Shown here piece by piece: positions 33,701 to 51,993 of a stretch of DNA of 64,000 bases. Origin of the DNA: Candidatus Latescibacterota bacterium (GTDB taxonomy: Bacteria; Latescibacterota; UBA2968; UBA8231); the NCBI GenBank assembly GCA_965261395.1, contig OZ253462.1, forward strand, positions 3,168,001 through 3,232,000, in the 5' to 3' direction. The notes under the pieces are model-generated. The model was not told the origin of the DNA and made no database searches. It saw only the letters and a list, made by a program, of their open reading frames with translations. Every line of letters starts with the position of its first letter. Positions within the stretch are counted from its first letter, which is position 1. The position numbers and the translations under genes were made by a program.

Positions 33701-33876
33701 GCGATCCCCACTACGCCCGCGCCCACTACAACTTGGGCAACGCGTACCTGTTGGCCGGCGAGGAGACACGCGCGGCGGCGGCGTTTGCTAAAGCTGTTGA
33801 AGCCGATCCTGAACATCGCAAGGCGCAGCAGATGCTCGCCGAATTGCGGCGGCGCGAGGCCCAAGGTGAGCGCTGA
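30763..33876 (+). CDS. CRTAC1-like + TPR lipoprotein (paralog of 22209-25406)
   Basis: Same architecture and shared motifs (HxAPTEYPGQR, LExFWREAP); true start may be 30790/30793. Confidence 0.9.
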   Translation: MDSKQLCIKVMIIPRRLSTCIVAFVCGCAASDPPPAPAVRFVDATAAAGIDFVHTSGRSGRKYGVETIGSGAAFFDYNRDGWMDLYVVNGADLPGYVSAVPPQNALYRNDGGHFVEVGASLGVADTGYGMGASAGDYDNDGDADLFVTNFGRNRLYRNEGAAMAWAFADVTAAAGIGADERWSTGSSFVDCDLDGDLDLYVANYLHYEFERGELSAGGTLRWPRRHLAPTEYPGQRNALWRNDGGRFVDVTAAAGLLTLEGRQLGAVFFDYDLDGDPDLFQGNDATPNFLWRNDGGRFAEVGLVAGVAYNAGGKPEGTMGVDVADGDGDGRLDLAMTNFQWESNTLYHNAGGGMFADESLAAGIAANSLDRLAFGINFLDADNDGDPDLYVANGHIDEDIDRFDPQATYGQSDQLYLNDGRGRFADASAAAGVVAPTRDLVGRGSAVADYDNDGDLDLFLLNTGQRALLWRNDTQAGHYLALALEGRTSNRDGYGARVEVRVGGRTLVAEKRSAASYLSQNDARMFFGLGPSEEAEQVEIAWPSGIRQVLTGVRAGQVLRVVEPDASAPQEAADEALAQAVPQGGDAEDLEQFWREAPLVLPEKTRAVLPPATPLSELRAATRAQPEVADVHIELGAALARQRAYDEAEAAYRRALQLDADAAQAYVGLGKLYADRGALGQAASALRQAIALDSTLAEPHYVLGNIHLRQQRLAAAVPFYEHAIALSPRYLQAYFNLAGLHARQTDYGPAIAVLRRGLAALPGEVELMLQLARIHFVQAQYEDALAQLASVVQAQPTRAEAHELTAQIWMAREDAEAARAALQQGLEHVPNSAALLGRLGILLLQEGADEEAVSLLQRALAADPDRTEVYYHLGQALLRRGETVRGRQLLDYFHSLQQEHQKLLAHKTAVVLNPNDADAFYKLGAVYARIGRYEAASQAYQAALAVAPDHLDARNNLGNIYLRRRALGLAIAAYQEVLRRDPHYARAHYNLGNAYLLAGEETRAAAAFAKAVEADPEHRKAQQMLAELRRREAQGER

Positions 33877-36319
33877 GCGGCGGCTGCAGCTCGGCGTGGG
33901 GCTGGTGGCTGCGGCCGTCATCGGCTATGAAATCGGCCTCGTCCGGCTGTTTTCCTTTTTGCAGCACTATCACTACACGTTTCTCGTGGTCTCAGGGGCG
34001 GTCTGCGGCTTGGGCTTGGGGGCCGCGCTGAGTGCGGTGCTGCGCGTGCGGGAAGAGCAGCTGTACCGGCACTTGGGCTATTGGGCTGGTTTTTGCGGGT
34101 GCAGCATGGGCCTGGGGGCACTCGCGTTGGCGCAGTTCCCCCGCATGCCGCTGTGGATGTTGGTCGGGGTGGCCGGGGTGCCGTTTGTCGCGGCGGGTGC
34201 GTTGCTCGCTCTCGCGTTCCGCGCGCGCCATCGGCACAGCCAAGTGCTCTACTTTTGGGATCTGGTCGGCGCGGCGCTGGGTATTCTGTGGATCGTGCCG
34301 GCCTTAGAGTGGCTGGGAGGCGTGGGTGCGCTGGCGAGCGCTGGATTCTTCGCGTTCGCGGCGGCGGCGCTGTGGATCGGCGGCTGGGGAGTATGGGTCG
34401 CTCCAGCTTTTTTGACCGTCTTACTTGCAGTTCAACGCGATGCGCAGCATGAGATTATTGACCTCAGTGCCCTAGCTGAGGCCGCCGACAAGCCCATGTT
34501 CCGCGCCTTGGGCGCGGCGCGCCACCGAGGGGAAGTGAAGGATACGCACTGGAGCGCGTACGCGCGCACCGACTTGGTAGATCGCACGGGCGACACGGGC
34601 CTGAACTTGTACGTAGATGGTGGGGCTGGCTCGTATATGTTCCGCTTTCCCGGGGATTACCGGCGGCTGTTTTTCTTGCGCCGCGAGGCTGCGTTTTTCC
34701 CCTATTACTTCTCGTCCCGCGAGCGCGCTCTGATCATCGGGCCGGGCGGTGGTGCCGACGTGCTCTACGCCCTGATGACCGGCTGGCGGCAGATCGAAGC
34801 CGTAGAGATCAACCCGGAGATCGCCGCGCTAGTTCGCTCATACGGAGAGTACAACGGCCATTTGTACGACTTGGAGGGGGTAGAGCTGCACATTGGCGAT
34901 GGCCGCAACTATTTGGAGCGTTCCCCCGCGCGCTACGATCTAATCGCCCTGCCCTTGGTGTATGCCGAGGCGGCTGATTTGGTGGGGTACGCGCTTTCCG
35001 AGAATTACCTGTTCACCCGCGAGGCATTTGCCGCCTATCTCGATCACCTCACCGAGGGTGGTCGGTTGGCTCTCGTAGTCCACAATCACGCGCTGATGTT
35101 GCGCGTGGTCGCCACCTTGGGTGCCTTGTGGGAAGAGCGCGGCCACGAGCCGAGCGCGGTGCTCGACCACCTCGTCATCGTCAATGGCGCTCGCGGCGAT
35201 CCGGCGCGGCAAGAGGCCTACCGTCCCTTGTTACTGGTGCAGCGACAGCCCTATACAGCCGGGCAGTTGGCGCGGCTACACGCGGCGATGGAGGAGTTGG
35301 GTTTAGACGCGTACTTTGCACCCGGAAGGCGCGAACGGCCGGCGCTGGCAGCGTTGCGCGGGGCTACATTGGCGGATTTTGTTGCCGCCGCCGCATTCGA
35401 CATCTCGCCGACGACTGACGACCGTCCCTTCTTTTACGACGCTACTCGCGGGCTGGATTCCAAGCTAACTTGGCTATTGGTCGGCGCGTTGTTGGCGTGC
35501 ACGCTGGTGATGTTGGTGCCGCTTGCTGCGCCGAATATGCGCCAGCGGAGCGCGTCTGGACCGCCGCCGCTGTTGTGGGCGTTGTTCACCGCCGGATTGG
35601 GCACGGGCTTTATGATGGTCGAGATCCATCTCTTGCAGCGCTTTGGCCTGTTCCTCGGCTATCCGACCCTGACGCTGGCGGTCGCGCTTTTCGGGCTGTT
35701 GTTGGGTACGGGGGCCGGGAGTCTCGTGGGTGGATGGTGTCGCCCGCTCGCGTATCCACGGGGGTTGGGATTGGTCGGTGTGGCCGTCGGCCTCGTCTGC
35801 TATCTCTATGGGTTCTTGCTCGATGGCGTGCTCGCTGGGACGTTGGCGTGGTCGCTGGCTGCGCGCGTTGGGTTGACGCTGGCTCTCGTCGCGCCGCTCG
35901 GAATGTTGCTAGGCACCTGTTTTCCGGCCTGTCTGCGCTTGGGTGGTTCACAACGCGCCGGGATCGTCCCTTGGCTGTGGGCCGTCAATGGTTTCTTCTC
36001 GGTACTCGGATCGGTCGGGGCCGTGGCTTTGGGCATGGAGTGGGGAGCGAGTGCATCGTTGGCGGTCGGCGCGGCCGCGTATGTGGCGGCGGGTACGGCG
36101 CTCTTTTTAGGCAGCCGCCGGACTCCTTCAGGCGTGGAGGTGACCCGGCCGGCCGACGCGGGACGCTGGGCGGTGGGTGCTCTGTTCTTGGTTGCGCTGC
36201 TGTGGTATGCGGCCTTTAGCTTTATCGGCGCGCGCTATTGGGGCGCAGCTCCTTCGGCTGCTCATCCGCGCCCGCCGGTTGCGGTCGAGGTGTGGCCGGC
36301 GGCGCTTAGGGACTTTTAA
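33866..36319 (+). CDS. Membrane protein with spermidine-synthase-like SAM-dependent domain
   Basis: GTG start overlapping the upstream gene end; TMs; LIIGPGGGADV, VEINP, GDGRNYL, TDDRPFF; C-terminal TMs. Confidence 0.85.
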   Translation: MSAERRLQLGVGLVAAAVIGYEIGLVRLFSFLQHYHYTFLVVSGAVCGLGLGAALSAVLRVREEQLYRHLGYWAGFCGCSMGLGALALAQFPRMPLWMLVGVAGVPFVAAGALLALAFRARHRHSQVLYFWDLVGAALGILWIVPALEWLGGVGALASAGFFAFAAAALWIGGWGVWVAPAFLTVLLAVQRDAQHEIIDLSALAEAADKPMFRALGAARHRGEVKDTHWSAYARTDLVDRTGDTGLNLYVDGGAGSYMFRFPGDYRRLFFLRREAAFFPYYFSSRERALIIGPGGGADVLYALMTGWRQIEAVEINPEIAALVRSYGEYNGHLYDLEGVELHIGDGRNYLERSPARYDLIALPLVYAEAADLVGYALSENYLFTREAFAAYLDHLTEGGRLALVVHNHALMLRVVATLGALWEERGHEPSAVLDHLVIVNGARGDPARQEAYRPLLLVQRQPYTAGQLARLHAAMEELGLDAYFAPGRRERPALAALRGATLADFVAAAAFDISPTTDDRPFFYDATRGLDSKLTWLLVGALLACTLVMLVPLAAPNMRQRSASGPPPLLWALFTAGLGTGFMMVEIHLLQRFGLFLGYPTLTLAVALFGLLLGTGAGSLVGGWCRPLAYPRGLGLVGVAVGLVCYLYGFLLDGVLAGTLAWSLAARVGLTLALVAPLGMLLGTCFPACLRLGGSQRAGIVPWLWAVNGFFSVLGSVGAVALGMEWGASASLAVGAAAYVAAGTALFLGSRRTPSGVEVTRPADAGRWAVGALFLVALLWYAAFSFIGARYWGAAPSAAHPRPPVAVEVWPAALRDF

Positions 36320-37497: not shown

Positions 37498-39126
37498 ATG
37501 CTCAAGTTTCTTCTGCTTCTACTTCTTTTATTCGTCCCCCTCTACGCCAACCCTCGCTTCCACGACGCCACCCAAGAAGCGGGCATCGGCTTTGTCCACG
37601 TCAACGGTGCGAATGGCCAGAAATTCGTCATTGAAACGGTCGGTCCGGGCGGCGGCTTTTTCGACTACGACGGCGACGGTCGCCTCGACATTTATCTAAT
37701 CAACGGAGCCGCTGTGCCTGGGACCGAATACGACCCTGCGCCGCAAAATGCGCTCTACCGGAACAGAGGCGACGGCACCTTCACCGATGTAACGGAACAC
37801 ACCGGCGTCGGCGACACGGGCTACGGCATGGGCTGCGCAGTCGGCGATATCGACAACGACGGCGACCTCGATCTATACGTGACCAACTTCGGTGCCAATG
37901 TGCTGTATCGGAATGAGGGCGATGGAACGTTTGCGGATGTGACGGTCGCGGCCCAAGTCGGCGACGAGGGCTGGGGGGCGAGCGCCGCGTTTGCCGACAT
38001 CGACCGCGACGGCTTCGTCGATTTATACGTGGGCAATTACCACAACTTTTCCTATGCCAATCACCGCGTCTGCGCCGAGGGCGGCAGCGGCTTGCAGCTC
38101 TACTGCGGCCCGGAGGCCTTTGACGGGGTGACCGATGTGTTGTATCGGAACGAGGGGGATGGAACGTTTGCGGATATTACGGTCGCGGCCGGTCTAGGCA
38201 GCGCTGAAGGCAAGGAGCTAGGCGTGGTCTTCGGCGACGTGGATCTCGACGGCGACCCAGACCTGTACTTGGCCAACGACAAGACCTTGAACTTCTTGTA
38301 TCTCAACGACGGCACCGGCCACTTTGCGGAAGAAGCGCTTTTGTCCGGAGTCGCGTACAACGAAGACGGCGATGTCGAAGCGGGCATGGGCGTTGACATG
38401 GGCGACTACGACAACGACGGCGCCCTCGACCTTTTCGTCACCAACTTTCAGTGGGAGACCAATACCCTGTACAAAAATCTCGGCGACGGCACCTTTGTCG
38501 ATGAAACCTTCCTGGCCGGGTTGGGCAAGGGCAGCATAGCCTACTTGGCGTGGGGCACGCGCTTTTTCGATGCCGACAACGACGGCGACCGCGACCTTTT
38601 TATCGCCAATGGCCACTTGGAAAGCGATGTCGAGCAATACGAGAACGCGACTTTCCCGCAGCGCAATCAGCTCTTTCTCAACGCTGGCGACGGCCGCTTC
38701 GAGGAATACCCAGAGGACGGCGGTGCCCTGTCCTTGAAACGAGTCAGTCGCGGCGCGGCCTTTGGCGACTACGACGACGATGGCGATATCGACGTGCTGG
38801 TGGCCAATGTCGCCGCCCAGCCGACCTTGATGCGCAACGACGGCGCGAGTGGCCACTGGGTGCGCCTGCGGCTAGAGGGCCGTGACAGCAACCGCGCTGG
38901 CATCGGGACCCGCGTCAAAGTTACAAGCGGCGGGCAGGTGCAGACCGACGAAGTGCGCTCGGGTGCCAGCTTCCTCTCGCAGAGCGACCTGCGGCTGCAC
39001 TTCGGGCTAGGAACGGCCACTAGCATTGAGCGGGTGGTCGTCTATTGGCCGAGCGGTCGGGTAGAGGAATATGCGGACTTAGGCGTCAACCAAGAGCATC
39101 TGCTCGTCGAAGGAGCGGCGCGATGA
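37498..39126 (+). CDS. CRTAC1-family protein (FG-GAP + ASPIC/UnbV)
   Basis: Signal peptide; DxDxDG repeats; SNRAGIGTRV, SFLSQSDLRLHFGLG. Confidence 0.9.
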   Translation: MLKFLLLLLLLFVPLYANPRFHDATQEAGIGFVHVNGANGQKFVIETVGPGGGFFDYDGDGRLDIYLINGAAVPGTEYDPAPQNALYRNRGDGTFTDVTEHTGVGDTGYGMGCAVGDIDNDGDLDLYVTNFGANVLYRNEGDGTFADVTVAAQVGDEGWGASAAFADIDRDGFVDLYVGNYHNFSYANHRVCAEGGSGLQLYCGPEAFDGVTDVLYRNEGDGTFADITVAAGLGSAEGKELGVVFGDVDLDGDPDLYLANDKTLNFLYLNDGTGHFAEEALLSGVAYNEDGDVEAGMGVDMGDYDNDGALDLFVTNFQWETNTLYKNLGDGTFVDETFLAGLGKGSIAYLAWGTRFFDADNDGDRDLFIANGHLESDVEQYENATFPQRNQLFLNAGDGRFEEYPEDGGALSLKRVSRGAAFGDYDDDGDIDVLVANVAAQPTLMRNDGASGHWVRLRLEGRDSNRAGIGTRVKVTSGGQVQTDEVRSGASFLSQSDLRLHFGLGTATSIERVVVYWPSGRVEEYADLGVNQEHLLVEGAAR

Positions 39127-40493
39127 GGGTGCTGCTAATCTGCCTCGCATTGTGCGCCTGTGCGGAGGAAAGCTCGCAAGAAAAAGTGCGCCCCGGCGCG
39201 GCTATGGACGCCGAAATGCTCTTTGCGCGCGGCACCGCGCTCGCCTCCCAAGGCCGCCATACTGAGGCCATCGACGCCTACCAGCAGGCTGCCGCGCTAG
39301 CACCTAGGTCCGTCAAGGTTCATTACAACCTCGGCAACGCCTACGTGCGCCAGCTCGATTACCCCAGCGCGATGACAGCCTATCAGCGCGTATTGGCGCT
39401 GGACTCGACGCACGTATCAGCGCGGCACAACCTCGCGGCGATGTACGTCAAACAGCTCAACTACGCCCAAGCCATTGACGAACACCGCCGGGTGCTCTCG
39501 TTAGACCCCGGCCATTTGACGACCTACTACGACCTCGGCTACATCTACTTCTTGCGCGGCGAGTACGGCGAGGTGGAAGCGCTGCTGCAAGCGGGTCTGG
39601 ACCGCGACTCGACCAATGCCTCCTTCTACCGGCTCTTGGGCCGGACGCGCCTGAAGGAACTCGACTTTGAGTGGGCCGCGATGGCTCTGACGCGTGCTGT
39701 CGCGCTGGACAGCACGGACGCGGCAGCGTACGTCGATCTAGCGCAGGTGGAGCTCAAGCGGCGCGAGTACGCGGCGGCCGAACGCGCCGCCCGCCGTGCC
39801 ACTGCGCTCGACCCACTGTCCAAGGAGGCGTACTTTGCGCTGGCCAATGCTCTCAAGCGGCTCGGCCGCCGCGAGGAGAGCACCGAAGTGCTGGCGCAGT
39901 TTCGGGCGCTCGACCAGCAGCTCGACAAAATCGACGACCAGTTGCGGATGCTGGGCAATGTGCCCGACGACCACGAGGCGCGGGCGCAATTGGGCCTGCT
40001 GTACAGCGAGCAGGGCCGCTTGACGGAAGCTGCCGAAGCGTATCGGCTGGCCGTGCGCCTCGCGCCGGACAGCCTGCGCTACCGCAACAATCTAGGGAAC
40101 CTGTACCTGCGCTTGGGCCAATTCGCCGAAGCCGTCACCGAGTATCAAGCCGCGCTGGCCTTGGACCCAGAATACGCCAAGGCGCACTACAATTTGGGCC
40201 AGGCGTACCTGCGCTTGCAGCGCTTTGACGAGGCCGTAGCGAGCCTCACCGAAGCGCGCCGCTTAGCACCGGAAGACGCGGAGACCCATTACTTTTTGGG
40301 GCTGCTACACGCGCGCGCTGACGACTTCGTTGCGGCCGCCGAGATGCTGGCCGTCGCCGTGGCAGCCCGGCCGGACTGGCTCGACGCGCGGCAGAAGCTG
40401 GCCGTGGCATACTTGAAGTCGGGCAAGGTAGAAGAGAGCAAGCGAGAGTTGGAGGCGATCCGGCAAATGAAAGAGAGTGGGCAGCATGAGTAA
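39123..40493 (+). CDS. TPR lipoprotein
   Basis: ATGA overlap at 39123; MRVLLICLALCAC lipobox; tandem TPRs. Confidence 0.85.
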   Translation: MRVLLICLALCACAEESSQEKVRPGAAMDAEMLFARGTALASQGRHTEAIDAYQQAAALAPRSVKVHYNLGNAYVRQLDYPSAMTAYQRVLALDSTHVSARHNLAAMYVKQLNYAQAIDEHRRVLSLDPGHLTTYYDLGYIYFLRGEYGEVEALLQAGLDRDSTNASFYRLLGRTRLKELDFEWAAMALTRAVALDSTDAAAYVDLAQVELKRREYAAAERAARRATALDPLSKEAYFALANALKRLGRREESTEVLAQFRALDQQLDKIDDQLRMLGNVPDDHEARAQLGLLYSEQGRLTEAAEAYRLAVRLAPDSLRYRNNLGNLYLRLGQFAEAVTEYQAALALDPEYAKAHYNLGQAYLRLQRFDEAVASLTEARRLAPEDAETHYFLGLLHARADDFVAAAEMLAVAVAARPDWLDARQKLAVAYLKSGKVEESKRELEAIRQMKESGQHE

Positions 40494-42057
40494 GCGTTGG
40501 CTGGGAGCGGCATTTTGTTCGGCGCTGGTCGGCCTAAGCGGCTGCGCCGAGGACGGCCCGGCCGTGGCCACTGAAGATGCCGTCTTGGTGGAGGTGGGGC
40601 CAACGGCGATTCGGGTGGCGGACTACCGCCAGTTCATCGCGCGGGTGGCGCCGGAATTGCGGGCCGAGTACGGGGCCGAGCAGTTATTGCAGGCCATCGT
40701 CGAGCAAACGCTGCTCGTGCAAGAAGCCGAGCGGCGGGGATTGAGCGAGAGCGCGGAGTTTTTGCAATGGCAGGCGCAGGCGCAGGCACAGCTGGTGCAG
40801 CAGGCCTTGTACGAGCGCGCCGGTATCGTCCAACCCGAGGTCGCCGAGGAGGAGCTGCGGACCTACTTCCAGCACAGCCCGTACAACCGCCAAGTGCGCT
40901 TCAGCCTGCTGATGGTGCGCGACCAAGAGCAGCTACCGGAGATTTTGGCCTCGCTCGCCGAGGGAGCGGACTTTGAAGAGCTATCGATGCAGCACTCGCA
41001 GGACTCGCGGATCCTAGAGCGCCGCGCCGACATGGGCTATCACCGCTGGGGCGACACTATGGCCTCGCACGCCGCCCTGACCGAAAGGGCCTTCTCCATG
41101 CAGATCGGGGAGATCTCCGAGCCGCTGCAGGTGGCCGATGGGTACTTTCTCATCAAGCTCACGGACACGCACCCGGTCAGCTTTGAGCAGGAGCGGGAGA
41201 CCGTTCAGCGCTTGGTGCTGCGGGAGAGGCTCGGGCGACAGCTATTGGCTTATTACGATACCCTGCACGTGCGCTATAATGTGCGCTACGAGCCGGATGG
41301 GTTGGCGGCGGACCGGTCGCCAGAGGCGGTCGTGGCTGCGTACGACGGCGGGGTGCTAACGGTCGCACAGGCCCGCGAACTGCTAAAGGGTCAGGCCACG
41401 GGCGAAAAGGTGCTGCGGCGCGAGGTCGGGCGGCGCGTGTTGGTCCCGCTCGAAACCGCGCGGCTTGCGCTCGCCGCCGACCCGGACCTGCTGCGCGAAT
41501 TAGCGCGACTGCGGCAGATGCAGCTTGCGCGGCGCTTGCAGGACGCGCAGCAAGCGCAGGTGCCACCACCCAATCCCAACGGCCTGAGCCTGTTTTACGA
41601 GGAGCACAAGCTCCGTTATACCGCGCCAGCCGAGGTGGAGGTGCGTCGGCTTCTCGCCAGCGACGAGGCCGAGGGCACCGCCATCGTCGAGCGGCTGCGC
41701 ACCGGCCGCGATACGACGGCGCTGGTTGACCGCTTCGTCAGCGTTTTTTACGGCAGCGGCGCGTTGGAGGGCGACAATCCGGTTAGCCGTGCCCTGCGCG
41801 CCGACGAAGGGACTTTCCACGGCCCCTTTGCCACGGATAATGGTTATATTGTCTTGCAGGTGTTGCGCCGCCGCCCGGACCGGCTGCCACCGCTGGACGA
41901 AATCCGCGAGCAGGTGGAGGCGGATTGGGCGGCGGCCCAGCTCCAAGCTGCGATCAAGGAGCTGGCCGCGTCTCTGCGCCAGCGCCGCGCCAACGAAATC
42001 CGCTTCAGCCCAGACGCTGTGGCACTAGCCCTTTTGGCCACTTCTCATGGCGAATAA
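40486..42057 (+). CDS. Parvulin-type PPIase lipoprotein
   Basis: Lipobox LSGC; GADFEELSMQHS, GEISEPL..GYFLIK, GPFATDNGY. Confidence 0.8.
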   Translation: MSKRWLGAAFCSALVGLSGCAEDGPAVATEDAVLVEVGPTAIRVADYRQFIARVAPELRAEYGAEQLLQAIVEQTLLVQEAERRGLSESAEFLQWQAQAQAQLVQQALYERAGIVQPEVAEEELRTYFQHSPYNRQVRFSLLMVRDQEQLPEILASLAEGADFEELSMQHSQDSRILERRADMGYHRWGDTMASHAALTERAFSMQIGEISEPLQVADGYFLIKLTDTHPVSFEQERETVQRLVLRERLGRQLLAYYDTLHVRYNVRYEPDGLAADRSPEAVVAAYDGGVLTVAQARELLKGQATGEKVLRREVGRRVLVPLETARLALAADPDLLRELARLRQMQLARRLQDAQQAQVPPPNPNGLSLFYEEHKLRYTAPAEVEVRRLLASDEAEGTAIVERLRTGRDTTALVDRFVSVFYGSGALEGDNPVSRALRADEGTFHGPFATDNGYIVLQVLRRRPDRLPPLDEIREQVEADWAAAQLQAAIKELAASLRQRRANEIRFSPDAVALALLATSHGE

Positions 42058-43099
42058 TTCCATCGTCCTGCAACCTGCCTATATCGTCGATCGCCGGCAG
42101 GACTACGTGTGGTTTGTGGGGCTACCGTTTGCTGCGGTGGGCTTTGCGCTAGTGTCGGGGCACTACCTGCCAGGGGCCGCGCTGGCGGCCATTGCCTTGT
42201 GGGTGACCATTCCGCATCACTTCGTCACTTGGCTGCGCGTCTATGGCTCGCCTGCGGAGTTTGCCCGCTTCAAGGAGCGCTTCCTTCTCGGGCCGGTGCT
42301 CTTAGTTGCCTTTGCCTACGGCCTGATCCAATGGGCGCCGTTGAGCTTGGTGTTGATCGTGACGTTGTGGGATCACCAACACAGCTTGATGCAGCAGTAC
42401 GGCTTTGCGCGCGTGTACGACTTCAAGGCCAAGGCTGGCACGCCCGCAACCGCTAAGTTCGACTTGGCCCTCAATTGGATCTTCTTTGGCAACATGCTCG
42501 TGGTGTCGCCGCTGTTTTCCACGGTCTGGGTGCGCATGTTGCACGAGTGGCACTTGCCCATCAGCGCGGAGGCGGTAAAGACGGTACACCTCGTCTCGTG
42601 GACTATTGCTATTGCCTACGGCCTGATCTACTTGGGGCACATTGCCTATTGCGCCCGGCGCGGCTTGGCGCTCAATCCCCTCAAATACGCCTTTCTGCTG
42701 TCGAGCTATTTCCTGTGGTACTTCACTAGCTTTACCACGGCCTATCTACTCGTCTTTGCGGTGGCGCACCGGATCATGCACGGGATCCAGTACATCGTCA
42801 TGGTGTATTTCTACAATCGCCACAAAGTCGAGCGCACGGGCGGCGACTCGGCCCTGATGCGCTATGTGTCGAGCAAGGGGGGCGTCAAGTTCTTTCTCCT
42901 AATGTGCGCGGCCTACGCCGTCGTCTTTCACGCGCTGAGCGAGGGCTTGGTGCGCGACTTTGGCTTTGGCCTAGTCGGCTTCAATACCAATTTCGACCTC
43001 TTCAGCTATTCGCTGCTCAGTTCCTTTGCTCTGATCCACTACTACTACGACGCATTTATATGGAAAGTGCGGAAAAAGGACGTGCAGGAGGGGCTGTAG
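42047..43099 (+). CDS. His-rich polytopic membrane protein of unknown function
   Basis: TMs with PHHF, HQHxxxQxYGF, HRIMHGIQY and HYYYDAFIW motifs. Confidence 0.7.
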   Translation: MANNSIVLQPAYIVDRRQDYVWFVGLPFAAVGFALVSGHYLPGAALAAIALWVTIPHHFVTWLRVYGSPAEFARFKERFLLGPVLLVAFAYGLIQWAPLSLVLIVTLWDHQHSLMQQYGFARVYDFKAKAGTPATAKFDLALNWIFFGNMLVVSPLFSTVWVRMLHEWHLPISAEAVKTVHLVSWTIAIAYGLIYLGHIAYCARRGLALNPLKYAFLLSSYFLWYFTSFTTAYLLVFAVAHRIMHGIQYIVMVYFYNRHKVERTGGDSALMRYVSSKGGVKFFLLMCAAYAVVFHALSEGLVRDFGFGLVGFNTNFDLFSYSLLSSFALIHYYYDAFIWKVRKKDVQEGL

Positions 43100-43164
43100 C
43101 AGAGGCTCTGTTGCGCTGCGGCAAAGTAGCTACTGACCACTCATCAGGACCAGGAGATTGAGCC

Positions 43165-45006
43165 ATGCTCGAAGTCGTCCTCGCCGTCGCTGTGTTCGCC
43201 GTCGCTGCGGCCATTGTCCGCCAAGTCACGGCCGATGCGTGCTACGACCTCTCCGACGGGGAGCGCCATCCCCATAAGTGGGGCTACACGGATACCCGCT
43301 TTGAGTTCGACGGACCGAAGACCGTGCGGGTTACTGGCAGCCGCTATCCGATAGCCGGCTTCACCATGCCGCACTTCATCCCCTTTGTCGAAGAAATGCT
43401 CCAGGTCCCGATTGATCCCAATGAGATGGCCGTTGAAAAAGAGGTCCAAGCCGTGCCGCCCTCGCGAGCAGACGAAAGCCTCGTCGCCGCTTGGCAGGAC
43501 GCGCTCGGCGCAGAGCGGGTGTCGCTCGACGACGCAGAGCGCCTAATCCACAGCCACGGCCAGCTCAGCGTCGATGAGGTCTATCGCTTGCTCTACGGCG
43601 ACGCCTTGGAGCGAGTGGTCGATTTAGTGCTTTATCCAGAGAGCGAAGACCACGTGCGCACCATCGTGCGTCTCGCCTCCGAGCACAATGTTTGTCTCGT
43701 GCCCTACGGCGGCGGCACCAACGTCAGCGGCGCGCTGGCCCTGCCCGTCGACGATGGCCGCGTCTTCGCTTCGGTCGATATGCGGCGCATGAACCGGATC
43801 GTCTCTCTCGACGAGGAAAACCTCCAAGCCTGCATCGAAGCGGGGATTTCGGGCAAGGAGCTGGAGCGGGAACTCACCGCCCGGGGCTACACCGTCGGCC
43901 ACGACCCCGACAGCATTGAACTTTCGACCTTGGGCGGCTGGATCGCCACCAACGCCAGCGGCATGAAGAAAAACCGCTACGGCAATATCGAAGACATCGT
44001 CCTCGAAGCGACCCTGGTGACGCCGACCGGCGCGGTGGAGACTTTGCACACTACGCCGCGCAACTCGACCGGCATCCAGCCGCGCGGGCTGCTTTTTGGC
44101 TCGGAGGGCAACCTCGGCATCATCACCAAGGCCGTGCTCAAGATCCATCCTCAACCGGAAGTGCGCGAATACGGTTCGCTGGTGTTCAAGTCCTTTGCCC
44201 AAGGCGTGGAGTACTTGCAGGCGCTGCGGCAGACTGGGACTTTGCCGGCGAGTATTCGCTTGGTCAATAACCAAGAATTCCGCTTTGGACAGGCCCTCAA
44301 GGCCGCGCCCTCTCCTGTGAAGCACCTCAAGGAAAAGGTGCAGAAGTTTGCCTTATTGAAGGTGTTGGGCTTTGACCCGCTAAAAATGGCGGCGTGTACG
44401 ATCGCCATGGAGGGGACCCGCGCCGAGGTCGCGCATCAGAAGCGGACGATCTTCAAGCTGGCCAAGGCCCACGGCGGCAAGAGTGCCGGCGCTACCAACG
44501 GCCGGCGCGGCTACATGCTGACCTTTGGGATCGCCTATATCCGCGACTTTTTAAACCAGTTCGATTTCTTGGGCGAGACCTTTGAGACCTCCGTGCCTTG
44601 GAGCCGCATCCACGACGTGACGCAGGCCGTGCAAGCGGAGTTGGTCGCGCAGTGTAGCGCACGCGGCGTCGCTGGGCGGCCCTACCTGTCGTACCGGGTG
44701 ACGCAGACGTATCACACGGGGGTCTGCATCTACTTTACGATGGGGTTTTCCGGGCGGGGATTGGCGCAACCCATTGAGGTCTATCACGAGATTGAGCATA
44801 TGCTGCGGCAGACGATTTTGGACCACGGCGGCTCGCTGTCGCACCACCACGGGGTAGGCAAAATCCGGCAGAGCTTCGTCCGGCACATCCAGAGCGACAA
44901 CAGCATCGAAGTATTGCGAAAGACCAAGGAAGCGCTGGATCCGCAGAATATCTTTGGCATTCAGAATGGGATTTTTGGCAGTGCGTGCCGGGAGCCTGAG
45001 GAATAA
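43165..45006 (+). CDS. agpS: Alkyl-dihydroxyacetone-phosphate synthase (FAD-binding, VAO/PCMH fold)
   Basis: PYGGGTNV, GHDPDSIELSTLGGWIATNASGMKKNRYGNIED, GSEGNLGIIT, GETFETSVPW, RVTQTY, GGSLSHHHGVGK. Confidence 0.88.
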   Translation: MLEVVLAVAVFAVAAAIVRQVTADACYDLSDGERHPHKWGYTDTRFEFDGPKTVRVTGSRYPIAGFTMPHFIPFVEEMLQVPIDPNEMAVEKEVQAVPPSRADESLVAAWQDALGAERVSLDDAERLIHSHGQLSVDEVYRLLYGDALERVVDLVLYPESEDHVRTIVRLASEHNVCLVPYGGGTNVSGALALPVDDGRVFASVDMRRMNRIVSLDEENLQACIEAGISGKELERELTARGYTVGHDPDSIELSTLGGWIATNASGMKKNRYGNIEDIVLEATLVTPTGAVETLHTTPRNSTGIQPRGLLFGSEGNLGIITKAVLKIHPQPEVREYGSLVFKSFAQGVEYLQALRQTGTLPASIRLVNNQEFRFGQALKAAPSPVKHLKEKVQKFALLKVLGFDPLKMAACTIAMEGTRAEVAHQKRTIFKLAKAHGGKSAGATNGRRGYMLTFGIAYIRDFLNQFDFLGETFETSVPWSRIHDVTQAVQAELVAQCSARGVAGRPYLSYRVTQTYHTGVCIYFTMGFSGRGLAQPIEVYHEIEHMLRQTILDHGGSLSHHHGVGKIRQSFVRHIQSDNSIEVLRKTKEALDPQNIFGIQNGIFGSACREPEE

Positions 45007-45799
45007 AACAGTCGTTATCACCGGTGCTTCTGCGGGCTTGGGCGCGACGCTGGCGCGGGAGTGCGCCCAGCAGGGAGCGCGGTTGGTTGTCTTAGCGCGG
45101 AATGCCGAGCGGCTGGAGGCGGTCGCCCGAGAGTGCGAGCAGTTGGCAAGCGAGGTGCTGACCGTCGTCGGGGATGTCGCCGTGGCCGAGGATGGCAAGC
45201 GGCTGGTGGAGGCCGCGATCGAGCGCTTTGGGCGCATAGACTACTTGGTCGCCAACGCCGGCGTTAGCATGTGGACCGAGTTTGCCGCGATCGAGGATGT
45301 GGCGTTGTTCCGCAAGCTGATGGAAGTGAATTACTTGGGGGCGGTGCACTGCGTGCATCCGGCGCTGCCGCATCTCAAAAAAAGCAAGGGCCTATTCGTG
45401 GTCATTTCGTCCATTCAGGGGCAGGTGGGGGTGCCGCTGCACACGGGGTACTCGGCGTCCAAACACGCGCTACAGGGGTTTTGCGATGCGCTGCGGATGG
45501 AGGTGGCCGAGAGCGGGGTGGGGGTGATGACCGTGCTCTTGCACTGGCTCAAGGGGACGGAGCTGCGGCAACGCGCACTGGGGAAAGACGGGAAGGCGTT
45601 GGGCACTGCATCGCGCAAACACCGGGCGGAAGCGGTGAGTTTAGAAGAGGCGTCGCAGGCAATTGTGCGCGGGATGCAGAAGCGACAGCCGCGGCTTTAT
45701 GTGCCTAGGCGGCTCAGGCTGCTGGCGGCGGTCCACGCCCTGTGGCCGACGCTGGCTGAATGGGTCGTCAAGGGGAAGGTGGCGCGGGAGGAAGGGTAG
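44981..45799 (+). CDS. Short-chain dehydrogenase/reductase (DHRS7/7B-like)
   Basis: TGASAGLG, ANAG, YSASKHALQGFCDALRME; start uncertain (44954-44981). Confidence 0.88.
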   Translation: MRAGSLRNKTVVITGASAGLGATLARECAQQGARLVVLARNAERLEAVARECEQLASEVLTVVGDVAVAEDGKRLVEAAIERFGRIDYLVANAGVSMWTEFAAIEDVALFRKLMEVNYLGAVHCVHPALPHLKKSKGLFVVISSIQGQVGVPLHTGYSASKHALQGFCDALRMEVAESGVGVMTVLLHWLKGTELRQRALGKDGKALGTASRKHRAEAVSLEEASQAIVRGMQKRQPRLYVPRRLRLLAAVHALWPTLAEWVVKGKVAREEG

Positions 45800-45806
45800 G
45801 TTGGGG

Positions 45807-48576
45807 CTATGACTGTTCGACGCGGAGCCGATCGCCCAGTTCGAGATCGTCCAGAATCTGCTGCAATTCAGCCTCCATGTTCTGTGCAAATTGCGAGCGG
45901 ACACTCACGGTAAATTCAATACCGACGCTAAGGTCTTCCCCGGAGCGCAGCTTGGGCAGCATCTTGGTTCCTAGCCGGTTCCAGACTTCGGGAGGTACGG
46001 TGCCGGTAAGCCGAAGCGTTGTCTTTTGATTGTCCGGGCTCGGTGCAGGATCCGGTCCCGATTCAAGCTCTGGCTGGGGTGCTGGCTCTGGGCTCGGCGC
46101 GGGTTCCGGTTGCGTCTGGGACGAATCTTCAGATGCGACTTTGAGTTCTTTGGCTTTGGTCACCAAGAAGACATTTTTCTCAAACGCCACTTCCTCGGCT
46201 TCGACCGACTCTTCATACCACAGCCGATTAAAGCCGCCATCGTCCTTGGCACCAGAGGCTAGGCCGAACTCTCCCTTCGCCACGAACTCAACGACCTTCT
46301 GACGCAGGATCGCGTCTGGATCGAGCAGCCGCGTCAATGCGCCGTTCAGAAAGCTCTGGCGCAGACTTGTGAGCGGCCAAGCGCCGGTGTCTTTGAACGC
46401 CGACGGCCAGTGGCGATCAATGTAGCCTGCACCCACGTTCTCGTTGAGCAGGGCCTCGGATTTCAAGGCACTGATAATCCGTCCGCAGAGGGTTTCGCTG
46501 GCGCTCGCGTGACCGGCCCCGAGGTCGATGATCTTGAGCCCATGCTTTTCCTGAGTATCCGCAAGCGCGACGAAGCGATAGCCGGCCCATACTTCGTCCT
46601 TGGCCGCGGTCTCCGCGTCCCGAACATGGGTCTGAATCTCGGCGCGGTCGGCGCGGTCGTATTCTGAGCCGAGGACGCCCTCGCTTACCTCTTGCGCCAC
46701 GCGCTTCCAAGCGAGCCATAGCTCGACCTTATCGCGCAGTTCACGCCCCGGTTTCCTCGCACACCAGACCAACGAACCTGGGTACAGCCGTGGCGAAGTG
46801 CCCCGCTCTTGCGTCCAATGACCAATGCGTTCGACCACTTGGTTGCCGTTTATCCATTCCTGATCGGGGTCGAGGACGATCAGGGTGAGGCGCGGAGAAT
46901 CTTGGACTGTGGTGCTGTCCTGTGGGAAGAAAGCTATCGGCAGGGTCGCGCCGCGTTTGAACTCCTCCTCGACCAGCTTGTGGACCGCCGGCTTGATCTC
47001 TGTAGCCTCGTCGAGCGAAGCCCGTCGGTCGCTGACGACCTTGCGCAGCGTCGCTTGATGGTGAATGCGATAGCCGTCCGTGCCGACCTTGCGGATAAAG
47101 AACCCCGACCCTTCGAGAGCCGTTGCCGCGCTGTCAATAGTCGTGGTCTCGACCTCGGGCTCGCCGAGCGCAAAGCGCAATTCCGGCAGATGGGCCACCT
47201 TGTCCACCTGTCCACCGGAGGACTCGAAGAGGATGGCCGTGCCTACCCGGCGGTGGATGTCGCGCAGCGCACCCGTGGCGTCCGCATCTAGGGATCTGGC
47301 ATGTGCCATCGGCCCGGCGAGGTCGGCGTCAATTGCCACGTCGAGCCGCGACTCGCCCAACTGGCCCAAGACCACGGCGCGAAATTCGGGCACGTCCAAA
47401 GGTGCCGACCCCAGCGTAATCAGCGATTCGGTTCGCGCCCTTGTGAACTGCTCGCGCGCGGCCCAGGAGATCCATTGCGCCAGCATGGCCAGCGCGCCTC
47501 GGGTTTGCTGGAACTGGGTGAGTGCACGCCACTTGCGCTGGAAGACCGAAAGGGTTGCCGGATGGAAGGGATAGCACGCCTCGAATCGCGCCCGCAGAAA
47601 TTCTTTTGCTTTGGTCTCGGTCGTCGTGGTATCGACCGCTAGCCACTCGGCGGGCAAGCGAGCGGTGCGTTCAAAACACCAGTCCGCGTAGGTCTTGGCG
47701 ACGCGCTTGCGAAGGCGCTCGTTGCCGAGGTCCTCGAACAGCCGCCGGCGCACCACCTCGCTGATTTCGGATTCGTCATTGGCGATCAGGTCGCGGGCGA
47801 CACGGCGCACCACCTTGGTGATCCGGTCCTGCCACTGTTGATCCCAATCGGTCATTTCGACTTGGCTGCGCGGTAGGCTGATGACCGCTGCGGCCTGAGT
47901 GGTGCCGGTGACGGCGACGGTCAGGTTTTGTAGGAAAGCGTGGAAAGGCTCAGCCATGGGGCGATGGCGATTGACGAAGTTCAGGACTTCATCGAATAAC
48001 AGCAGCACGGGCGCGTCCGCAGCGGCGAATACGTTGGCTAGTGCCTCGGTTCCTGGTGGTGTGGTCTGTGCGGCAGCGCCGAGCGCAGCGACGCCCTTAT
48101 CGCCGGCTAGTTGGCGCGCTAGGTCAATCCAAGGCGTTTCCTTGCCTTCCACAGGATCCCAGGCATTGCCGACGAAGACGCCGACGCGGGCGGGCGGGGC
48201 TTCTGCAATCCCCGCCTCGTCCAGAAGGTCTGCCACGCCGGGGAACTTGGCGGCATCCGCGCCAGCATTGGCGATATGGTACAGGGAAGCCAGTGTATGC
48301 GTCTTGCCGCCGCCGAATTGGGTGACGAGCGTGAGGACTGGTGCCGTGTTCTCGGTCTTGCCGGAAAGACGCCGGAGGACCATGCCGGCGTGTTCCTTAC
48401 AGGGCGCGGGTGAAGCAGGTACGCGAAAAAAATTGCGCTGGATCGCGGTAATCCACGGGGGCGGTTTGGGCTACGATCTGCTCAAGGGCGATGGCGAACT
48501 CGTCCGGGCTGAACGAGCGGCCTTCGCGAACTTCTTTACGGAGCGTTACGATTTTATACCAAGGGTCGAGGGCCAT
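45807..48576 (-). pseudogene. DUF499 AAA+ ATPase, frameshifted near the 5' end
   Basis: MALDPWYK...RTCFTRAL from ATG 48576, extra base at about 48399, then KEHAGMVLRRL...; TQFGGGKTH, LLFDE, YPFHP, FQQTRGAL. Confidence 0.85.
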
Positions 48577-48619
48577 TCTGTATCTCTCTTCGATCAGTTA
48601 TCTACGCGGCGGTTCAATC

Positions 48620-48845
48620 TCAGCTCCCCAGCGACTCTAAGCTCGTTACCCAGCCGTTGAACCGAGGGCATTCAGCGCGAATTGTAGCCAAGCCTATCTC
48701 TATTCCCGCCGGCAGATCTGCCGCGGGCGCTGCCAAGCAGAATCGGTGTTGGCTCGACTCCTCTTTCCCGTAAGTGATCCGCGAGAAATTGTTTGACGAA
48801 TTCCTCTTCGGTTTGGCCTTCCACCGATATGGCCAGTCGGATCAC
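48620..48845 (-). pseudogene. DUF4276-like (TOPRIM-like) gene collapsed by an internal deletion
   Basis: N-terminus VIRLAISVEGQTEEEFVK...GGN abuts, out of frame, the C-terminus EIGLATIRAECPRFNGWVTSLE*; GTGA overlap with the ATPase. Confidence 0.75.
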
Positions 48846-49960
48846 GGACGCCCTCCGAGCAAGTTCTTCTGCCAAAGCTCACCGGACGTGAAGTTGTCGT
48901 CGAGCCATACCTGATAGTCATCCGGGGACAGTTTGCGAAACTCAGTACAACCGTCCTGTAGCTCTAATACGAAAATCTCGTTGAGACCGAACGCATCAAC
49001 CAGCAAAGGCGATTGCGTTGCCACAATGACCTGCCGTTCCTCGGCGAGGGACTTTATCATACCCCCGACCAAGGCGATGGCTGCCGGATGCAAGCCCAGT
49101 TCCGGTTCGTCCAACAGGAGTACGTCGGGCAACATCTCGGGCGGTAGATTGAGCAGTGTCACCAAGGCAAAGAACCGTAGCGAGCCGTCAGACGTGAGGT
49201 GTGCACCAAAGGTCTTGTCCGTTCCCTTGGCCTTCCACCTTAGCAGCACTTTTCCGTAGCTCTCCTCGATCTGAAAACGGTCGAAGACTGGCAAGACTCG
49301 GCTGATATGCTGGCAGATTAGCTCATATCGCTTGATGTTTTCCCGCTCCAACCGGTGCAGTACGGCGGCCAAGTTGCCCCCGTGGCTAAGAAGGTAGTTG
49401 TTGTCCTCCGTGTCCCATCTCTTTTTGAAGTCAGATGTATCGGATGTGTCGTGAAATTGATAGACAGCGCAATTGCGAAGCAGGTTCACAATTACCTTGG
49501 CGGTGATGAGGTCGTTAGCAGAAAATTCGCTGGGCTTTGTGACCCGGACAATCTCGGCTTCCTGATGCCCACTTCCCAAGTATTGCCACTCGCTTCTGAA
49601 TCGGAAACTCTCCTCGCTAAAGAAAAAGCGGTCAGGATGAGCGTGGGAAAGTATGAACCGATAGTTGTAGCCGTAGCGGCCCGCTTCGGGTCTCAATCTA
49701 ACCTCGGCCTCTATGCGTGGAGTACGTCGGCTGCCACCATGCAATTGATCGTCGGCCCCTCCTTGCATCTCGACAAACTCGGCAAGTCTGCGAGGCCCAA
49801 GCATCCAGCTCAGCATTTCGAAGAAGCGAATGAAATTGGACTTGCCCGAGCCGTTGGCACCAATTAGGACCGCCGCCTTGGGAATTCCCGCAAGCTCGAC
49901 ATCGGCTAACGACCGGAAACCCTGGATGCGGACATGATCTATAAAGGTTGTTTTACTCAT
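48842..49960 (-). CDS. ABC/AAA_21-type ATPase
   Basis: GANGSGKSN, TSDGSLR, LLLDEPELGLHP, ATQSP. Confidence 0.9.
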   Translation of the reverse strand: MSKTTFIDHVRIQGFRSLADVELAGIPKAAVLIGANGSGKSNFIRFFEMLSWMLGPRRLAEFVEMQGGADDQLHGGSRRTPRIEAEVRLRPEAGRYGYNYRFILSHAHPDRFFFSEESFRFRSEWQYLGSGHQEAEIVRVTKPSEFSANDLITAKVIVNLLRNCAVYQFHDTSDTSDFKKRWDTEDNNYLLSHGGNLAAVLHRLERENIKRYELICQHISRVLPVFDRFQIEESYGKVLLRWKAKGTDKTFGAHLTSDGSLRFFALVTLLNLPPEMLPDVLLLDEPELGLHPAAIALVGGMIKSLAEERQVIVATQSPLLVDAFGLNEIFVLELQDGCTEFRKLSPDDYQVWLDDNFTSGELWQKNLLGGRP

Positions 49961-50121
49961 CGAATATTCTCCCTACGGCGGTCGGCACATCAATCGAGGA
50001 GAAATTTCACTGCTTTATACCAAGGCTCCATCGCTACTCCTCTGGCTCTCACGGATTGAGCGACTCTGCGATGTGGTCGAGTTTCTCGTGTGTCTCCGGG
50101 TGGATCTCGTCTATATCGCAG

Positions 50122-50604
50122 CTATTCTACTCGGCACAGATCTCTCCTGCCAAGTAGTTTCTTATGTGCAGACCTGAATTCCTTGTTCGGGTTCTTTTTT
50201 TTGTCCGTTGAATAAACTTTTCCTAGTGGGTTGTCGATCAACTTCTTGTCCCTGAAATCATCCAGTAAATCCTTATCGTTAGAGTACAATAGACGGGCTC
50301 CGCTGACTTGGGCTAAAGCAAGAACGTGAGGATCATCTGACCTGATTGCGCCTTCACTCTGGATCTGCTCTGTCCTTGCGTCAACTTCGCTTTTGTTTAG
50401 GATGCTCATCTTTCCAGCAAGCAGGAGCTGTTGTGCTTCTTTTCTAAAGCCCTCCGAACTCCCCTCAAGCTCCTCAAGCAGCTTGCCACCGACCATCAGA
50501 CGTCCACTTCCTTTTTTGAGCCATTCCAAGAACTTCTCGCCTGCCGGCGGTAGACTAGAACCGAACACCTCAGAGACGGCGTTTGCGTCAACAATTGCGC
50601 ACAC
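50122..50604 (-). CDS. PIN-domain protein
   Basis: AIVDAN...DDPHVLALA...LLYSNDKDL acidic PIN motifs; 3 bp downstream of the ATPase. Confidence 0.75.
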   Translation of the reverse strand: MCAIVDANAVSEVFGSSLPPAGEKFLEWLKKGSGRLMVGGKLLEELEGSSEGFRKEAQQLLLAGKMSILNKSEVDARTEQIQSEGAIRSDDPHVLALAQVSGARLLYSNDKDLLDDFRDKKLIDNPLGKVYSTDKKKNPNKEFRSAHKKLLGRRDLCRVE

Positions 50605-50607
50605 GTT

Positions 50608-51993
50608 TCAGGTCCCTATAGACTGTCTCTTCCATAGAGACCTTGTCGTTTCTTCCAAGAAAAAGTTTCGGTAGCCATCGGGAGCGCCCAAGATATTTCC
50701 TTCTTCGTCAATGCGGAGTGAGTGAATGCAAACATCCAAATCCTTACGCTCAAAAAAGAGTATAGACACGTCACCGGGTTTCAGCACCGAGGTACCATCG
50801 CGCACATCCATACGCACCCGGTCGAGCAGGTGATCGCTATGTGTCTCGACCACCAATTGACGCTTCGGTCCGGCGATTTGGCAGAACAGGCTGCCCAAAG
50901 CTGCTTGAGCACTGGGATGGAGATGTACTTCCGGTTGCTGTAGCAGGAAAATGGGCGGGGTGTCGGCGCGCAGTAACTCGGTGATGACGGGGAGCACTTG
51001 GCTTACTCCATAGCCTACGTCAATTAAGTTCCGCTGCGGTCCCTTAACTCTTTTTCCGGATTTTCGGACCTGCACTTGAAAAGGCTCCGTCTCCTTCTTT
51101 CCTAAAGGCTTGACCGAGATTTCATCAAAAAGACCAGCGTCTTGACCGAATTTTTCGAGCGCGTCCTTGAGGGTTTTCCATTGCTCCCTATTCTGGAAAT
51201 ACAAATTGGACAGGTACATAGGGATGTAATCGCCCTCGGGGTCTCGTGTCGGGCGTGCGGGATCATACGTGCGACGCGGTTTGGAGCGGACCGGCGCGCT
51301 GGCATACGGCCTCTCTTTGTAAAAGGATTCCACTTCATAGGCTTCCATAGTAATATCGTAGAATTCCAATATACCAAAGGATGACATTTGATTGACTCGT
51401 TCAAAGTCCGCTTTCGTAGGCTGCTCCGAACCTGACAGTGCGGTCCATTGCTTGTCTTTGGAGTGCGTTATATACGCCTGAAAAACAGAAAAAGAAACCC
51501 CACCGATATAAGTCTCTATAAAAGTCCTGTCTCGATCGGATAGAGAATGCTTCCAAGCACCATTTTCTGTCCCAAAGCTAATCTCCCCTTTCGATCCTTT
51601 GACCCACGCATCCTTTTGGAAAAAGTGTCTTCGCACCGGAACAGGGACGGTTCCACTTTTTCCGAAGGTTACTTCAAGACGATACGGTCCACCTGCTATG
51701 CTATTGTCTCTTTTGACCTTAAGAGTGAACTCAAATCCCGCCTCAAAAGTATCTACTCGATCGCCCCGTTCTCCTCGGTAATGGACGATCTCGTCAAAGC
51801 TACCGAGGTCGTAGGGTTCTTCCTTGAAATCGGGATCTCTCTCCCGAAAGGCAATATCCCAAAGCGCCCGGATCATGGCCATGAACGAGGTCTTGCCGGT
51901 GCTGTTCTCGCCGACGAGCAGGGTCAGCGGCGCTAAGCGGGCGGTCTGTGTCTCCCGGAAGCAGCGAAAGTTTTTGAGCGTGATTTGGTCCAT
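50608..51993 (-). CDS. ABC-type ATPase (AAA_15/AAA_21 + DUF3696-like C-terminus)
   Basis: GENSTGKTS, DVGYGVSQVLP, QQPEVHLHP, ETHSDH. Confidence 0.9.
   Translation of the reverse strand: MDQITLKNFRCFRETQTARLAPLTLLVGENSTGKTSFMAMIRALWDIAFRERDPDFKEEPYDLGSFDEIVHYRGERGDRVDTFEAGFEFTLKVKRDNSIAGGPYRLEVTFGKSGTVPVPVRRHFFQKDAWVKGSKGEISFGTENGAWKHSLSDRDRTFIETYIGGVSFSVFQAYITHSKDKQWTALSGSEQPTKADFERVNQMSSFGILEFYDITMEAYEVESFYKERPYASAPVRSKPRRTYDPARPTRDPEGDYIPMYLSNLYFQNREQWKTLKDALEKFGQDAGLFDEISVKPLGKKETEPFQVQVRKSGKRVKGPQRNLIDVGYGVSQVLPVITELLRADTPPIFLLQQPEVHLHPSAQAALGSLFCQIAGPKRQLVVETHSDHLLDRVRMDVRDGTSVLKPGDVSILFFERKDLDVCIHSLRIDEEGNILGAPDGYRNFFLEETTRSLWKRQSIGT

Follow-up and report, generated by a model that had tools for sequence, protein, structure and literature searches.

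A candidate peroxisome-type alkyl ether lipid module with linked AGPS and SDR genes in Latescibacterota

We analyzed a 64,000-nt stretch of DNA (contig OZ253462.1, positions 3,168,001 to 3,232,000; hereafter the window) from a single-contig, 6.55-Mb genome of a Candidatus Latescibacterota bacterium with a completeness of 95%, focusing on a candidate gene module for the synthesis of alkyl ether lipids. Positions are those of the window unless marked as genome coordinates. Translation of the open reading frames (ORFs) reveals three genes on the plus strand of the interval 42047-45799, encoding a polytopic membrane protein of 350 amino acids (aa) (42047-43099), a 613-aa orthologue of alkylglycerone-phosphate synthase, or alkyl-dihydroxyacetone-phosphate (alkyl-DHAP) synthase (AGPS; 43165-45006), and a classical short-chain dehydrogenase/reductase (SDR) of up to 281 aa (44954-45799), which is a candidate acyl/alkyl-DHAP reductase. 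We propose that the last two are translationally coupled and encode the enzymes of both committed steps in an oxygen-independent alkyl ether lipid route of the peroxisomal type, a reading to which we give a probability of about 0.75.

Layout of the locus

The initial annotation of this DNA, made from the sequence alone, had described the interval as an AGPS gene plus an SDR gene; both are present, and a third gene, that of the membrane protein, opens the interval at 42047. The membrane-protein and AGPS genes lie in different frames and are separated by the stop codon of the former (43099) and a further 65 nt, and an AGGAG Shine-Dalgarno-like sequence is found 5' of the AGPS ATG. The overlap between the AGPS 3' end and the SDR ORF, already noted at that stage, amounts to 26-53 nt, the exact length varying with the choice among four candidate SDR starts. 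A scan for promoters and terminators performed no better than on shuffled sequences (promoter-like sites, 1 versus 2.1 expected; terminator-like sites, 11 versus 9.6). Four metatranscriptomic libraries, from two studies, contain contigs (95-99% alike) that span the genes of a peptidyl-prolyl isomerase (PPIase) lying upstream, the membrane protein, the AGPS and the SDR, and thereby bridge the PPIase/membrane, membrane/AGPS and AGPS/SDR junctions. These contigs hint at expression; DNA carry-over is possible, and such contigs show neither transcripts nor their levels or ends.

Identity of the AGPS orthologue

The product of 43165-45006 matches PF01565 (E 2.7e-40, residues 153-294) and PF02913 (E 1.2e-36, residues 331-597). 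A phmmer search against the PDB aligned residues 38-601 to residues 95-656 of guinea-pig AGPS (4bby; E 1.7e-148, 499 bits), an alignment that takes in the region N-terminal to the flavin adenine dinucleotide (FAD) domain and in which about 42% of the positions are identical (approximately 236 of 566 columns, counted by hand). Dictyostelium AGPS (2uuu) was retrieved with an E-value of 4.6e-88 and 299 bits. The best non-AGPS chain (3pm9, E 3.6e-26) spans residues 153-338 only, namely the FAD domain, and all GlcD-type NCBIfam models score far under their cut-offs. The enzyme is thus closer to AGPS than to the GlcD-type oxidases, as the initial annotation had judged from six motifs, all of which were located in the translation: SGMKKNRYGNIED (265-277), PASIRLVNNQEFRFGQALK (361-379), GYMLTFGIAYIRD (449-461), GETFETSVPW (470-479), RVTQTY (511-516) and GGSLSHHHGVGK (555-566). 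The hydrophobic N-terminus mentioned with them corresponds to residues 1-21 and may anchor the protein to the membrane.

Residues known to matter for catalysis are conserved. Mutagenesis of the Dictyostelium enzyme is reported to have shown the catalytic importance of R352, Y508 and R447, with Y508 as the proposed base (PMC3509576). By hand count, using a chain index offset of 3, R365, R460 and Y523 of the window protein align to R352, R447 and Y508. The guinea-pig mutant chains 4bc7 and 4bca of the PDB differ from the wild type at the Arg of ASIRL (the first Arg) and the Tyr of CIYF, and both residues are retained here. The segment GGSLSHHHGVG (555-565, with the three His at 560-562) recurs unchanged in the guinea-pig and Dictyostelium chains; we take this His-His-His loop to adjoin the flavin in AGPS. 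Four FAD-oxidase matches were found in the whole genome, one being the AGPS and the other three GlcD-type paralogues with 30-35% identity. Judged by its sequence, 43165-45006 encodes a full-length, genuine AGPS orthologue, for which the exchange activity is predicted.

The linked SDR

The SDR ORF matches PF00106 (E 8.8e-51) and NF004825 (291 bits). It carries TGASAGLG at residue 23, NAG at 101, SS at 152 and YSASK at 166-170, and the motif quoted in the initial annotation, YSASKHALQGFCDALR, begins at residue 166. The glycine-rich dinucleotide motif (TGxxxGxG) and the Ser-Tyr-Lys catalytic set place the protein among the classical SDRs.

Linkage of the two genes was scored by tblastn on AGPS loci, 30 from the genus of the window and 22 from outside it. 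An SDR lies directly 3' of AGPS at 47 of the 52 loci, across four families and a second class. Within the genus this holds for 27 of 30 loci, two of which have a gap of about 1 kb, and in other genera, other families and a second class for 20 of 22. Both loci of a divergent AGPS clade (45-47% identity) keep the SDR, which is there only 30-32% identical. The initial annotation had made its proposal depend on conservation of this linkage, and the linkage is conserved.

The four-gene operon of sister families

The gene order in sister families, and also in a single genome from another class, is fatty acyl-CoA reductase (FAR), a protein that we call X, AGPS and SDR. FAR and X lie directly 5' of AGPS in the loci of genomes G040, G029, G028, G033, G036, G074, G077, G079, G107 and G092, where FAR is a stand-alone protein of 534-601 aa with PF07993 and PF03015, and X measures 645-684 aa. 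The placement of a FAR and an acyltransferase upstream of the AGPS-SDR pair fits a peroxisome-type alkyl-DHAP route. Part of the operonic, peroxisome-like pathway suggested initially is hence upheld by the AGPS orthologue, the SDR coupling across families and the upstream genes of the sister families, while the operonic arrangement does not extend to FAR and X in the genus studied here, where they are unlinked.

No FAR or acyltransferase adjoins AGPS among the ORFs at 33.7-52 kb, and the PF07993 and PF01553 matches of the genome all fall outside the window coordinates, in agreement with the initial remark that the window shows neither a FAR nor a DHAP acyltransferase. The genome search recommended at the same time for GNPAT/PlsB-like and FAR genes found both functions, unlinked: X at 0.75 Mb and a FAR domain at 2.23 Mb. 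The parts of the pathway are therefore present; they stand together in sister families and are scattered over the genome in this genus.

The X protein of this genome (646 aa; genome coordinates 746985-748925) is 44-48% identical to the operon copies. It belongs to no Pfam family and gave no match by sequence in NCBIfam or the PDB. Its invariant His (H446) sits in a FLP[ST]HQS[LM]L[DE]H motif with D or E at the +5 position, downstream of a 430-aa N-terminal helical region. An AlphaFold model of X (predicted local distance difference test score, pLDDT, 77) has as best Foldseek matches PlsC (5kym; E 1.6e-4, probability 1.0, template-modelling score 0.60 on the target) and the plastid glycerol-3-phosphate acyltransferases (GPATs) 8ia1, 1iuq and 1k30. 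Of the 41 relatives searched, 40 have X, and the named members of its family all come from metagenome-assembled genomes (MAGs) labelled as Latescibacteria or Gemmatimonadetes. The model and motif together suggest that X is probably an acyltransferase of the GPAT/PlsC fold.

The sole strong FAR match in the genome falls on the N-terminal domain of a protein of 1408 aa encoded at 2.23 Mb, with PF07993 (21-363), PF03015 (466-534), PF00501 (574-935) and PF01553 (1220-1344). This is the architecture of ElbD, which combines FAR, AMP-binding and acyltransferase domains in one chain; no carrier-protein domain was detected at E 0.001. Among 41 genomes searched, the fusion was matched over its full length only within the genus. 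BLASTP of X against it gave a marginal match (E 0.064) around the region of acyltransferase motif III, and a search for longer homologues found no fused FAR-X forms, a result of little weight.

The surroundings of the ElbD-like gene (G000:C1:2226000-2244000) were also inspected. It is followed on the same strand by genes for an LGT-like prolipoprotein diacylglyceryl transferase homologue, a 558-aa Oxidored_FMN protein and an SDR, and diacylglycerol-kinase-like and MlaD genes run divergently from this cluster. The ensemble may be an elb-type cluster with accessory genes unlike those of Myxococcus xanthus.

Proposed pathway

In the route that we propose, the oxidised FAD of AGPS would serve as the electrophile and the acyl chain of 1-acyl-DHAP would be swapped for a fatty alcohol, yielding 1-O-alkyl-DHAP. 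Reduction of its keto group by the SDR, with NADPH as the probable cofactor, would give 1-O-alkyl-sn-glycerol-3-phosphate, and this would pass into ordinary phospholipid synthesis. The fatty alcohol would be supplied in this genus by the FAR domain of the 1408-aa ElbD-like fusion and the acyl-DHAP by the 646-aa X protein, both from unlinked genes. No match to PF10520 (PEDS1/CarF) was found at E 0.1 or better in this 95%-complete genome, and alkyl (plasmanyl) ethers rather than plasmalogens are therefore the predicted products.

A wider claim can be put forward more tentatively, at somewhat less than even odds: in the FAR, X, AGPS and SDR operon, prokaryotes would have their fullest equivalent of the peroxisomal pathway, X would represent a new, lineage-restricted family of DHAP acyltransferases and the SDR would be the first alkyl-DHAP reductase of the DHRS7B kind to be recognised in bacteria. 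If true, this would supply the reductase step in bacteria and add, besides Myxococcota, a second bacterial lineage to be weighed in the origin of the eukaryotic pathway.

Distribution of AGPS

AGPS is present in 125 of 168 genomes of the phylum and is concentrated in the class of the window. By family, the counts in the class are 71/75 (f1), 29/31 (f2), 22/22 (f4) and 1/3 (f3), so that AGPS is near-universal in three of the four families (122/128 for f1, f2 and f4); outside the class a single genome out of 37 has it. Identity to the window protein is 79-96% within the genus, 62-71% in other genera and families, and 45-47% in the second clade. Proteins with at least 90% identity bear the NCBI label 'Gemmatimonadota bacterium' (MAG), and more distant members of the class are labelled Candidatus Latescibacteria/Latescibacterota or Handelsmanbacteria. 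The G+C content at 42-46 kb (0.597-0.616) is like that of the surroundings. The class-wide distribution, the identity that falls with distance and the matching G+C content fit vertical inheritance within the class and not recent transfer.

The membrane protein encoded upstream of AGPS

The protein encoded at 42047-43099 (+) is predicted to be all-helical and polytopic (model pLDDT 81.5). Nine residues are invariant among 20 homologues down to 46% identity, seven His and two Asp (H57, D109, H110, H112, H198, H241, H245, H331 and D335), in HxH, HxxxH and HxxxD arrangements. No family or fold could be assigned through Pfam, NCBIfam or Foldseek against the PDB (best E 0.11); a wide VIA-align search peaked at a Z of 7.1, within the noise range for helical bundles, and an Atlas look-up returned unnamed clusters only.

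This gene closes a plus-strand cassette (37498-43099) in which stops and starts overlap across four genes. An FG-GAP/ASPIC-UnbV protein (37498-39126) overlaps the gene of a tetratricopeptide repeat (TPR) lipoprotein-like protein (39045-40493), which overlaps that of the SurA-like PPIase (40477-42057), whose stop overlaps the start of the membrane-protein gene. Two paralogues of the membrane protein are encoded elsewhere in the genome (C1:5190471-5192213 and C1:4396866-4398752, minus strand), each fused to C-terminal TPR domains and beside FG-GAP/ASPIC genes and CHU_C genes, the latter carrying a type IX secretion signal. This arrangement suggests a recurring envelope module.

One species of the genus shows a further arrangement. 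G023 has, directly 3' of its membrane-protein gene (G023:C113:40291-42862), an additional but incomplete AGPS copy that comprises residues 1-334 with an identity of 82%, and the full-length AGPS is on another contig, beside a PPIase fragment. The second copy may reflect a rearrangement or an assembly split.

Weighing of alternative explanations

Several observations weigh against an AGPS-SDR pair for alkyl ether synthesis. The SDR is at most a candidate DHRS7B orthologue: it matches generic SDR models only, a language-model Atlas look-up led to generic SDR clusters, and its nearest solved relatives are an HSD17B4-type (3R)-hydroxyacyl-CoA dehydrogenase (2et6) and 11beta-HSD1, at about E 1e-28. 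The SDR could accordingly be a conserved neighbour acting on another substrate, such as a fatty aldehyde, a 3-ketoacyl compound or a sphingoid or steroid-like ketone, with a different enzyme reducing alkyl-DHAP. One look-alike Atlas cluster is indeed named 3-dehydrosphinganine reductase family, and the operon partner in M. xanthus is described as an extended-SDR protein of the epimerase/dehydratase family rather than a classical SDR (PMC9131029). Yet the SDR gene overlaps the AGPS stop and keeps its position at the 47 linked loci even where AGPS is only 45-47% identical, and its best solved relatives belong to the groups, HSD11B1 and HSD17B4, to which the DHRS7 subfamily is reported to be phylogenetically close (PMC13200781, 2026); DHRS7 and DHRS7B are stated there to reduce alkyl- and acyl-glycerone phosphate with NADPH. 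We consider a different SDR substrate unlikely. The linkage itself has exceptions: in three of the 30 genus loci, from the most divergent species, no SDR was found within a flank of only 1.5 kb, and two of the 22 outside loci (G127 and G129, of one genus) are without it. As for X, the copy of this genome reaches 17.8 bits against PF01553, below the cut-off of 23, the Asp of its HX4D motif is Glu in one sequence, and its model has low-confidence stretches within the acyltransferase domain. FAR and X are moreover adjacent in two genomes of the class where a search detected no AGPS (G026:C110:8481-12075 and G030:C1:199183-202827; completeness 95-96%), from which it follows that the pair can act without AGPS; it may also serve an AGPS-independent route. 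Deletion of the AGPS homologue in M. xanthus is reported to lower ether lipids only slightly, ElbD providing the main route (PMC9131029; bioRxiv 10.1101/2025.10.10.681575), and a study of sponges reports finding no short-chain bacterial plasmalogens (bioRxiv 10.64898/2026.06.23.733905). With all these points counted, the coupled AGPS-SDR pair remains our preferred reading.

Two other explanations concern the origin of AGPS and the extent of the module. The initial annotation had raised an exchange with eukaryotes, and AGPS might be a recent acquisition from a eukaryotic donor such as a host animal, or the result of a direct exchange with eukaryotes. The protein does score higher against the animal enzyme (499 bits) than against that of Dictyostelium (299 bits), and a bacterium-to-eukaryote transfer of the pathway has been hypothesised in print, for Myxococcota (PMC13012113). 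Nothing points to a recent exchange, however: AGPS occurs in 122 of the 128 genomes of three families with an identity that drops with taxonomic distance, the local G+C content (0.60-0.62) matches the window, identity to animal AGPS is only about 42%, and AGPS sequences lack phylogenetic signal according to the PNAS authors (PMC13012113). We judge such an acquisition highly improbable. The membrane protein, for its part, could be a third member of the module, a metal-dependent lipid-modifying enzyme with His motifs that replaces PEDS1/CarF, the product then being plasmalogens or another modified ether lipid. Its gene lies 65 nt 5' of AGPS on the same strand in the window and in 27 of the 29 other genus loci examined (two further ones are cut or rearranged), contigs from the RNA libraries bridge the junction, the invariant His and Asp residues would suit such a role, and PF10520 was not found in the genome. 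Against this, the adjacency to AGPS is limited to one genus (0 of 10 loci in other genera of the family and none in other families), a search for the protein in 16 further genomes of the class came back empty in 15, although AGPS-SDR is kept there, and no desaturase or hydroxylase family or fold was matched. We find a role in ether lipid modification improbable. Given the genus-only adjacency, the overlap with the PPIase gene and the TPR-fused paralogues, the membrane protein more likely belongs to the upstream FG-GAP/TPR/PPIase envelope cassette than to the lipid module.

Relation to known systems and significance

Sediments, sponges and water columns commonly contain non-isoprenoid alkyl glycerol ethers, which serve as biomarkers although few of their producers or pathways have been assigned. 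With an AGPS route encoded in operons across the class, this uncultured lineage would become a credible source of these ethers. The four-gene cassette of the sister families is compact and could be tested by heterologous expression, and it bears on the enzymes of DHAP acylation and alkyl-DHAP reduction in bacteria. Current views are not overturned by these results, since bacterial AGPS modules and the presence of Agps in Latescibacterota have already been published; the modestly new parts are the conserved AGPS-SDR coupling, the four-gene operon of sister families and the unclassified acyltransferase X.

The statement of the initial annotation that characterised bacterial ether lipid routes use other enzymes proved incomplete. 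In M. xanthus, the AGPS homologue MXAN_1676 has been studied and is described as lying in an operon with a FAR+GNPAT fusion and a gene of an NAD-dependent reductase family, its identity to human AGPS being about the same, approximately 42% (PMC9131029). The system described here shares with it a bacterial AGPS about 42% identical to the animal enzyme, FAR and acyltransferase functions, a nucleotide-dependent reductase-family gene and, at another place in the genome, a multidomain protein of the ElbD type (PMC9131029; bioRxiv 10.1101/2025.10.10.681575). It differs in that FAR and the acyltransferase are separate genes (sister families) or unlinked (this genus), in that X falls outside all Pfam families and carries an N-terminal helical region of 430 aa, and in that the reductase is a classical SDR overlapping AGPS, with no CarF/PEDS1 found. 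PEDS1, and likely FAR and GNPAT, have been argued to be transferred from Myxococcota to early eukaryotes (PMC13012113).

With the animal peroxisomal pathway (FAR1, GNPAT, AGPS and DHRS7B/PexRAP) the similarities lie in the predicted order of the chemistry and the enzyme classes, in the conserved Arg, Arg and Tyr and the HHH loop of AGPS, and in the candidate reductase, an SDR with neighbours of the DHRS7 subfamily as its nearest solved relatives. Unlike in animals, there is no organelle or peroxisomal targeting signal, the bacterial AGPS having a hydrophobic N-terminus instead, and no PEDS1 step; the SDR and X are at most possible orthologues of DHRS7B and GNPAT.

Within the phylum, a Black Sea study reported Agps homologues for 67 of its 92 Latescibacterota MAGs (PMC11868695), and standalone elbD together with agps has been reported for sponge-associated Latescibacterota MAGs (bioRxiv 10.64898/2026.06.23.733905). 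These screens cover the same two marker genes (Agps and ElbD) by BLAST presence/absence and, in the portions of the two reports available to us, do not mention operon layout, an SDR partner or X. In the literature accessible to our search, which left supplementary tables aside, we found no published description of the FAR-X-AGPS-SDR operon or of X, and none that names the SDR as the reductase.

Neighbouring genes

Farther upstream on the plus strand, 33674-36319 encodes a polytopic membrane protein of 881 aa, in which a domain resembling spermine/spermidine synthase is weakly matched (PF01564, E 6e-4, under the cut-off). Directly 3' of the SDR, the minus-strand region 45807-51993, whose G+C content falls to 0.50-0.57, is likely a defence island. 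It encodes an HmaC-like/DUF499 AAA+ protein (PADLOC E 9.2e-80), an AAA_21 ATPase of the HEC-01A type (E 3.7e-115), a PIN-domain protein and an NsnB-like ATPase with DUF3696. Coverage by the RNA-library contigs ends near 45.6-45.8 kb in three of the four runs, and run X16 has a loose end at 45800, which is consistent with a different downstream neighbour in relatives. The relatives represented by these contigs diverge at approximately 45800.

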